From: Methylophagaceae bacterium
GTDB lineage: Bacteria > Pseudomonadota > Gammaproteobacteria > Nitrosococcales > Methylophagaceae
Assembly: GCA_047636295.1 (NCBI GenBank)
Contig: JBLIKM010000001.1
Location: 1-28,084, forward strand
Length of the DNA: 28,084 bases
Direction of reading: 5' to 3'
Translations under genes and position numbers: made by a program
The notes under the pieces: generated by a model
Told to the model about the DNA's origin: nothing
Databases searched by the model: none
Seen by the model: only the letters and a program-made list of their open reading frames with translations
Part shown: piece by piece, positions 4,381 to 4,749 of the stretch
Numbering within the stretch: the stretch's first letter is position 1
Layout of the letters: each line of letters opens with the position of its first letter

Positions 4381-4749
4381 ATGAGAATGTTACATACCAT
4401 GTTGCGTGTTGGGAATTTAGAACGTTCGATACAATTTTATACTGAAGTGCTGGGAATGACTGAATTACGTAGATCAGAGTACCCAGATGGTAAGTTCACA
4501 TTAGTCTTTATCGGTTATGGTGACGAGACCTCTAATACTGTGCTCGAACTAACTTACAACTGGGATACTGACCGTTATGACTTAGGTAATGGCTACGGAC
4601 ATATTGCTATTGGGGTAGCAGATGCAGCAGCAGCATGTGACAAAATTAGAAATCTAGGTGGCAACATTGTCGGTAAGGGCTATGATATCAGTAGCAACAC
4701 TGGCATTATATTCAACCCAATTTATAAACCAAATAGAGTAATCATATGA
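4381..4749 (+). pseudogene. gloA: Lactoylglutathione lyase (glyoxalase I), C-terminally truncated at about codon 97 with an unrelated read-through tail
   Basis: Matches GloA through ...ACDKIRNLGGNIV, then loses the conserved REAGPxK...[12 protein letters not shown] segment including the fourth metal ligand (E. coli Glu122). Confidence 0.85.
4661..4741 (+). pseudogene. 3' remnant of an FMN-binding (flavinylated) protein gene
   Basis: +1 frame relative to gloA reads ATLSVRAMISVATLALYSTQFINQIE*, resembling the (S/T)GATLSVRA...LALY C-terminus of FMN-binding proteins; stop 4 nt before the PepSY-TM start. Confidence 0.6.

Follow-up and report, generated by a model that had tools for sequence, protein, structure and literature searches.

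A probable microhomology-mediated recombination scar joining gloA to an FMN-binding gene beside a chromosomal integron in an uncultured marine methylotroph

Tandem duplications formed by illegitimate recombination at short, GC-rich microhomologies are documented in bacteria, and their join points are known in Salmonella, Acinetobacter ADP1 and E. coli (PMC11111574 and references therein). The DNA analysed here (the whole of contig C1, 28,084 nt, hereafter the window) comes from a metagenome-assembled genome (MAG) of a Methylophagaceae bacterium (1.40 Mb in 169 contigs, 56% complete) and contains a backward join between the 5' part of a lactoylglutathione lyase gene (gloA) and the 3' end of an FMN-binding gene (FMN_bind). 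We consider this junction a genuine illegitimate (microhomology-mediated) recombination scar with two pseudogene fragments in a sea-ice population of Methylophaga (the genus to which the names of close homologues point), a reading to which we give a probability of about 0.8. In naturally transformable bacteria, foreign or conspecific DNA may also be integrated by homology-facilitated or double illegitimate recombination (HFIR), and the locus invites comparison both with this process and, owing to the integrase gene nearby, with sedentary chromosomal integrons and with gene islands that sit at the 5' end of a gene.

Two parent genes joined at a six-nucleotide match

The stretch GCAACATTGTC (4661-4671), which occurs a single time in the 1.4-Mb assembly, is read in two frames: in that of gloA (start 4381) it encodes G-N-I-V, and the +1 frame from 4661 gives ATLSVRAMISVATLALYSTQFINQIE and ends with a TAA (4739-4741) 4 nt ahead of the PepSY_TM ATG at 4746. 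Both frames and the position of the stop had been pointed out in a preliminary description of this DNA and were reproduced here. In the 122-aa ORF that runs through the join (Table 1), the Pfam Glyoxalase match is confined to residues 3-98, GKGYDISSNTGIIFNPIYKPNRVII follows, and the TGA overlaps the start codon of PepSY_TM (ATGA).

Table 1 Features of the window (positions are those of the 28,084-nt stretch)
Feature	Position	Strand	Description
Putative first cassette	569..1659	-	DUF4238 gene (664-1659) and attC-like hairpin (about 569-650); divergent, on the 5' side of intI
intI, integron integrase	1787..2809	+	63 nt upstream of ubiD copy 1; TIGR02249, 429 bits (cutoff 265)
Direct repeat, copy 1	2872..4665	+	1.8 kb; ubiD (2873-4339) and gloA 5' part; 99.8% identical to the nhaR-linked copy on contigs L031 and L032
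gloA' fragment	4381..4665	+	Lactoylglutathione lyase codons 1-95, second copy; without the last 32 residues, including metal ligand Glu122
Chimeric 122-aa ORF	4381..4749	+	gloA 1-95 and 27 out-of-frame FMN_bind remnant codons; glyoxalase according to gene callers
Crossover microhomology GGCAAC	4660..4665	+	Imperfect extension TTGT at 4667-4670, past diagnostic base 4666
FMN_bind remnant	4661..4741	+	Last 26 codons and TAA; +1 frame relative to gloA; starts at A-T of the SGAT flavinylation motif; no start codon
PepSY_TM, intact	4746..5465	+	Only survivor of the porin-FMN_bind-PepSY_TM trio; directly behind ubiD-gloA'
Single-copy core block	4666..27958		23.3 kb; PepSY_TM, NTase-like, gnd, guaAB, xseA, lptCAB, kdsCD, mlaA, M3 peptidase, Bax1-I, hpf, nhaR
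Direct repeat, start of copy 2	27959..28084	+	ubiD 5' end behind nhaR; continues beyond the contig end; homologous from 1 nt before the ATG

The first parent was recovered intact. Residues 1-95 of the ORF are identical to those of a 127-aa GloA of the same population (P0016, found by database search), which past residue 95 continues with 32 residues of its own; GloA is 127 aa long in the relatives as well. The gene for P0016 is on L031 and L032, contigs of two further JGI ice metagenomes, in the order nhaR (3' end)-ubiD-gloA-DUF808, and both contigs are 99.8% identical to the window over 2872-4670. Glyoxalase I is a complete two-module fold with the metal ligands His5, Glu56, His74 and Glu122. 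P0016 has Glu122 and passes the TIGR00068 GloA equivalog model (166 bits, cutoff 120); the fragment in the window keeps His5, Glu56 and His74, its homology ends at residue 95-98, short of a complete fold, and without Glu122 and the last beta-strands it is a pseudogene, the function of gloA being retained through the intact copy. The intact gloA that the preliminary description advised looking for is present in the same population, on the nhaR-ubiD-gloA-DUF808 contigs; within the MAG assembly we found no second gloA, gloA 3' end or DUF808 gene, an absence that is uninformative at 56% completeness. A scan of metagenome contigs, among which close relatives of the window may be lacking, gave no exact match to the 27 nt that precede the junction.

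The second parent is recognized from sister species. In G001 and G008, an intact FMN_bind gene (178-183 aa; PF04205, E 3.4e-11) lies directly 5' of PepSY_TM, and its C-terminus ...DGISGATLSVRAMTSVVTLALYLTKFINQIE (DRHIDGISGATLSVRAMTSVVTLALYLTKFINQIE) is followed by the stop, 4 nt and the PepSY_TM ATG. The tail in the window matches that of G001 at 22 of 26 residues (tblastn E 9e-7), and the DNA is 84-86% identical over 114 nt. Judged by this homology, the tail represents the true 3' end of an FMN_bind gene, cut inside SGAT, as had been proposed; an HMM search with the 26-aa tail alone gave no Pfam match, the piece being too short. A full FMN_bind protein (PF04205) has the whole domain with its D-x-x-S-G-A-T motif and an N-terminal export signal, of which the remnant falls short; it has no start codon and is non-coding. 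Among 5.8 billion proteins searched, there was no intact FMN_bind with the exact tail of the window, the nearest differing at 4 of 26 residues. No porin gene and no 5' part of FMN_bind were found in the MAG (again uninformative at 56% completeness), and the sole FMN_bind gene found in it is a paralogue (contig C85, 30% identical). Where close intact homologues agree, the remnant (4661-4738) deviates at two places, AMTSV reading AMISV and ALYLT reading ALYST; these substitutions would be compatible with drift after inactivation, yet they are within species-level divergence.

Both parents being identifiable, the switch from gloA to FMN_bind can be located inside a short shared stretch. The intact gloA contigs equal the window through 4665, first differ at 4666 (G vs A) and are unrelated from 4671, and the FMN_bind genes of G001 and G008 align with the window from GGCAAC onward. 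GGCAAC belongs both to codons 94-95 of gloA and to the codons for G-A-T within SGAT of FMN_bind. The preliminary description had put the joint at 10-11 nt: the joining of two genes at a short shared sequence stands, but the perfect match is only these 6 nt, or 10 of 11 counting one mismatch, and TTGT (4667-4670) is shared only if the lost FMN_bind parent read as in G001, the FMN_bind side of the microhomology being taken from sister species because neither the FMN_bind nor the porin parent of this species was found. There is no IS element, long homology or site-specific recombination site at the join, and no repeat besides ubiD-gloA' was detected.

PepSY_TM itself has an orthologue in 18 of the 19 same-genus genomes searched. 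A Porin_O_P-like gene is located upstream of FMN_bind in G008 and G001, and G011 and G014 have the same porin-FMN_bind-PepSY_TM trio with the small ORFs o63-o93-o78 ahead of it; in the species studied here, the porin and FMN_bind partners of PepSY_TM are lost. The gene that follows PepSY_TM gives a weak NTP_transf_2 match. No ApbE gene is present in the PepSY_TM cluster, although the preliminary description had pointed to the clustering of FMN-binding, PepSY-TM and ApbE genes.

Gene order, direct repeats and the neighbouring integron

Five same-genus genomes (G001, G007, G008, G010 and G011) have the order (SNF2)-porin-FMN_bind-PepSY_TM-NTase-gnd-...-guaAB-xseA-...-lptBAC-kdsCD-mlaA-M3-...-ubiD-gloA, with ubiD 18-23 kb downstream of PepSY_TM and gloA about 20-23 kb downstream of FMN_bind. 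Given that gloA is natively downstream of FMN_bind, the join in the window runs backwards, which is the signature of a head-to-tail duplicative event. A backward join, and a native order FMN-PepSY...nhaR-ubiD-gloA, had been suggested from the window alone, and both are borne out: FMN_bind-PepSY...ubiD-gloA is the order in the five genomes and nhaR-ubiD-gloA that in the same population, the nhaR-ubiD adjacency being peculiar to this species. A rearrangement hot spot lies in the gap that separates M3 from ubiD: the window has Bax1-I-hpf-nhaR (25810-27861) between M3 and ubiD copy 2, G008 has this module on another contig with a 463-aa gene after nhaR, and the M3 peptidase gene and ubiD are direct neighbours in G007, G010 and G011. 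An insertion of about 3.4 kb (L021:12740-16126) separates ubiD from gloA in G008; in the window, G001, G007 and G011 the spacer between the two genes measures 41 nt.

The arrangement around the join is found on one molecule in a 39,960-nt JGI contig (3300053697, Ga0535652_0001070), which reads SNF2-o63-o93-o78-hemP-Plug fragment-DUF2753-FG-GAP(-)-DUF4238(-)-intI(+)-ubiD-gloA'/FMN'-PepSY_TM-...-M3-Bax1-I-hpf-nhaR-ubiD (887 nt, contig end). In the relatives, the native left flank of the porin-FMN_bind-PepSY trio consists of SNF2 (91% DNA identity to G008) and o63-o78; the segment hemP...intI-ubiD-gloA' (about 7.5 kb) thus replaces the porin gene and the 5' part of FMN_bind. The stretch between o78 and the cassettes (L026:2829-4455, on the JGI contig left of the window) holds hemP, DUF2753 and 204 aa of a TonB-dependent receptor, from which the Plug domain alone is left. 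Five relatives contain no close orthologue of the Plug fragment or of hemP-Plug' (identity at most 39%), which therefore give no clue to the left junction; the Plug fragment is probably another acquired, truncated piece.

Apart from a single silent T/C difference, 2872-2997 recurs as the final 126 nt of the window. On the JGI contig (L027), which was reached through the Bax1-I protein after an identity look-up with the NhaR protein gave no match, copy 2 extends to 887 nt, 1 of which differs from copy 1, and full ubiD, intact gloA and DUF808 lie behind nhaR on L031 and L032. In the probable source run (X1), Logan unitig depths are 10 and 9.6 for the integron region, 10.4-13.7 for five core-block unitigs and 19.5 for the ubiD-gloA 5' part (2885-4412); these are contig k-mer depths of single unitigs only, as binned depths mix in other organisms, and the copy number rests on one unitig depth in one run, the probable source sample. 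Only ubiD and the gloA 5' part (1.8 kb) are in two copies, and the 23.3 kb between them are single-copy. This core block is syntenic with the genus as far as the M3 peptidase gene. Two of its genes merit mention in their own right: LptA (16822-17625, minus strand) has a C-terminal SH3_3 domain (Pfam LptD_N and SH3_3) in a 267-aa architecture that aligns end to end in G008 and G007 (about 81-83%) and is genus-conserved, not a local fusion, and a 95-aa EncFtn-like protein (8028-8315, minus strand) is 92-98% conserved in G008, G001, G007 and G010, with no encapsulin gene beside it in the window.

The preliminary description had allowed for a link to an island. The element beside the junction is a chromosomal integron. 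At residue 151 (2237-2239) its IntI has His (YGGGL-H-VME) in place of the first catalytic Arg, which is present in five orthologues of the genus (YGGGL-R-VME; 83-88% identical), so that the R-K-H-R-H-Y set of catalytic residues is broken at this position; the integrase is probably inactive and the array frozen. The DUF4238 gene is followed by an imperfect attC-like hairpin ending ...CAGCCCCTTATTTGGGCGTTATAC, with a fold z-score of only -1.4; a loose regular expression for attC ends returned mostly noise, the site at 569-591 being the only credible one. Very high k-mer depth and many alternative flanks mark 594-628 in four ice metagenomes; the depth is 320-2170x at 597-628, and this would point to an attC shared by many cassettes in the community. 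The spacer of 63 nt and the intI 3' terminus have their homologue (82-85%) upstream of ubiD in G008 and G001, where only intI remnants are left, at the native M3...ubiD locus; this homology indicates that the intI-ubiD adjacency was inherited in the clade of the MAG, G001 and G008. It is clade-specific, as intI is not beside ubiD in the complete genome G051. The passage from intI to ubiD is bridged in a second run too (X2, record 10, 1715-2914).

Two routes through the integrase were considered and rejected. A join made by IntI at a secondary site would be on the 3' (wrong) side of intI, the complementary strand of the join (GTTGCCA) is a misfit to GTTRRRY, GWTMW does not fit either, and position 151 is His. 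An island that had entered ubiD at its 5' end, the 126-nt repeat being its att, is contradicted by a repeat that runs 1.8 kb through ubiD into gloA.

Competing readings and a proposed history

The join could have been produced in the library or by the assembler, as a chimeric read (template switching in MDA or PCR) or an inter-strain mis-join. The MAG is fragmentary, template-switch chimeras typically show short microhomology, and the samples probably belong to one sampling campaign. Nevertheless, the identical junction was assembled independently, at 0 mismatches, in at least two JGI samples and one Logan run: it is fully bridged on the 39,960-nt contig and recurs on two further ones, one of 17,921 nt from JGI 3300060719 (start equivalent to 4627 of the window) and one from SRR28416796 (start at 4636). 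The latter start is exactly one 31-mer ahead of base 4666, as is expected of a k=31 graph if native gloA, branching at 4666, co-occurs; the bridging contig of X2 has 30 letters left of base 4666, one below the 31-letter rule. An overlap of 6-11 nt cannot yield a de Bruijn join at k of at least 31, and thus the junction k-mers must have been present in the reads, at about 9-12x. All junction samples are shotgun ice metagenomes and not single-cell MDA data. The un-rearranged form is absent from all three informative contigs with this PepSY_TM allele, and the scar appears to be fixed in the sampled population. A one-off MDA or assembly chimera, an alternative raised at the outset, is excluded by the three assemblies, and an artefact of whatever kind is highly improbable. 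A simple deletion between adjacent gloA and FMN_bind genes would be the simplest route to a fusion, and the MAG yielded no intact orthologue of FMN_bind; however, gloA sits downstream and not upstream of FMN_bind in all relatives, the population has an intact gloA behind nhaR-ubiD, and ubiD occurs twice. Gene order and the intact gloA practically eliminate this second alternative of the preliminary description.

More has to be said about the possibility that had been envisaged, in which the junction would belong to a tandem duplication that still exists or to a free, prime-plasmid-like circle (here 25,087 bp) carrying gnd, guaAB, lptABC, kdsCD, mlaA and other genes. The assembly graph does contain the cycle nhaR -> ubiD -> gloA'/FMN' -> PepSY ... 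nhaR, and short reads cannot phase across the 1.8-kb repeat: no long read spans it, and the threading of integron-ubiD into gloA'/FMN', in preference to intact gloA, is the assemblers' choice. Moreover, a chromosome with SNF2-integron-ubiD-gloA-DUF808 plus a one-copy circle predicts identical unitig depths, and RecA recombination between the direct repeats would interconvert integrated and circular forms. A doubled depth had been anticipated over 4.7-28 kb, but only the ubiD-gloA 5' unitig reaches about 2x (19.5 vs 10-14); the core block is at 1x relative to the integron, which does not fit a present 25-kb tandem duplication. A circle would have essential genes aboard, yet the 25 kb contain no replication or partition gene. 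As in all relatives, SNF2-o63-o78 are found on the side of PepSY, in agreement with the integrated form, whereas under a circle the position of SNF2-o78 beside the integron would be a coincidence, and both the MAG contig and the JGI contig, the latter on one molecule, thread the integrated form. We therefore regard a standing duplication or circle as unlikely. Finally, the 122-aa chimera might be a functional new glyoxalase-like protein, or the fusion might have been selected for expression of PepSY_TM-gnd from the ubiD promoter. Its ORF is open, with a stop that overlaps the PepSY_TM start, and promoter capture via duplication is documented (PMC11111574). No plus-strand terminator is predicted from ubiD to gnd. 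Against a functional chimera, Glu122 is missing together with about one quarter of the fold, the last 27 residues are another gene read out of frame, and 27 codons without a stop may well occur by chance; new function or selected promoter capture is very unlikely.

Starting from the observed junction, its parents, the two copies and their order on one contig, a succession of events can be proposed for the recombination scar. A second ubiD and the first 285 nt of gloA, with the integron upstream, are now located between SNF2-o63-o93-o78 and PepSY_TM, where they replace the porin gene and about 470 nt of FMN_bind; the right-hand join was made inside GGCAAC, and the native nhaR-ubiD-gloA-DUF808 copy is 23.3 kb downstream. 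By the most likely route, an unequal head-to-tail join at GGCAAC would have produced a tandem duplication (about 25-33 kb) of FMN'...M3-integron-ubiD-gloA', after which redundant parts would have been lost, i.e., the first porin...M3 copy would have disappeared and the second integron copy would have been replaced by Bax1-I-hpf-nhaR. Alternatively, the porin gene and the 5' part of FMN_bind may have given way to an inserted conspecific integron-ubiD-gloA' fragment. About four novel joints are required in either case, and the data do not discriminate between the two. The two ubiD copies have 0-4 differences in 1.8 kb, all of them population SNPs, and this near identity suggests gene conversion or an event of recent date.

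PepSY_TM-NTase-gnd now follow ubiD in one orientation, and with no terminator predicted in between, read-through into them is possible. In principle, RecA acting on the two 1.8-kb repeats could excise or amplify the core block. By extension, repeats around 23.3 kb of housekeeping genes may be a standing recombination substrate, cells of the sea-ice population switching between single-copy, amplified (tandem-array) and excised-circle states, with the gloA'/FMN' scar as the join point. We hold this to be a slim chance; if true, core metabolism would have a natural, 'prime-like' polymorphism in copy number beside a chromosomal integron. In practical terms, the 1.8-kb intragenomic repeat makes the assembly look circular and is not to be taken for a plasmid or an excised element, and the 122-aa 'glyoxalase' called by the pipeline is a chimeric pseudogene.

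Comparison with known systems

The locus resembles islands that enter a gene at its 5' end and bring a substitute for that end (SXT in prfC, dusA islands) in having a direct repeat of a gene 5' end from the ATG onward and an integrase beside one copy. Unlike in those islands, the repeat spans the whole of ubiD and 285 nt of gloA and is not a short att, the integrase is that of an integron, and core genome lies between the repeats. With sedentary chromosomal integrons it shares an IntI (TIGR02249), a putative divergent DUF4238 cassette with an attC-like hairpin on the 5' side, and a platform inherited beside ubiD. The gloA'/FMN' join, however, is 3' of intI, outside the array and without a GTTRRRY core, and IntI has His for the first catalytic Arg. 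The integron adjoins the rearranged block and need not have been its agent; what the locus presents is segmental duplication and gene loss right beside a chromosomal integron platform.

As in HFIR, a native segment (the porin gene and the 5' part of FMN_bind) is replaced, and there is a microhomology joint at one end. Two points set it apart from HFIR: no homologous anchor was identified at the left end (o78/hemP), and between inserted and resident ubiD-gloA' the identity is 99.8-100%, so the donor would be the same species or chromosome.

The closest likeness is to the join points of bacterial duplications, with which the locus shares a backward novel junction between unrelated genes, a short GC-rich shared sequence, a join without IS or site-specific motif, and direct repeats that remain recombinable. 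It differs from them in that only 1.8 kb are still duplicated, the rest having been lost or never duplicated, that the relic copy is tied to an integron with 2 kb of native genes replaced, and that it comes from an uncultured natural population with no laboratory selection. It is a typical short-homology illegitimate join and a decayed relic, an ordinary event that reveals no new mechanism or system, and at the same time a well-resolved natural microhomology join from an uncultured marine methylotroph, for which both parent genes are known, the crossover lies within 6 bp and the junction is seen in several samples.
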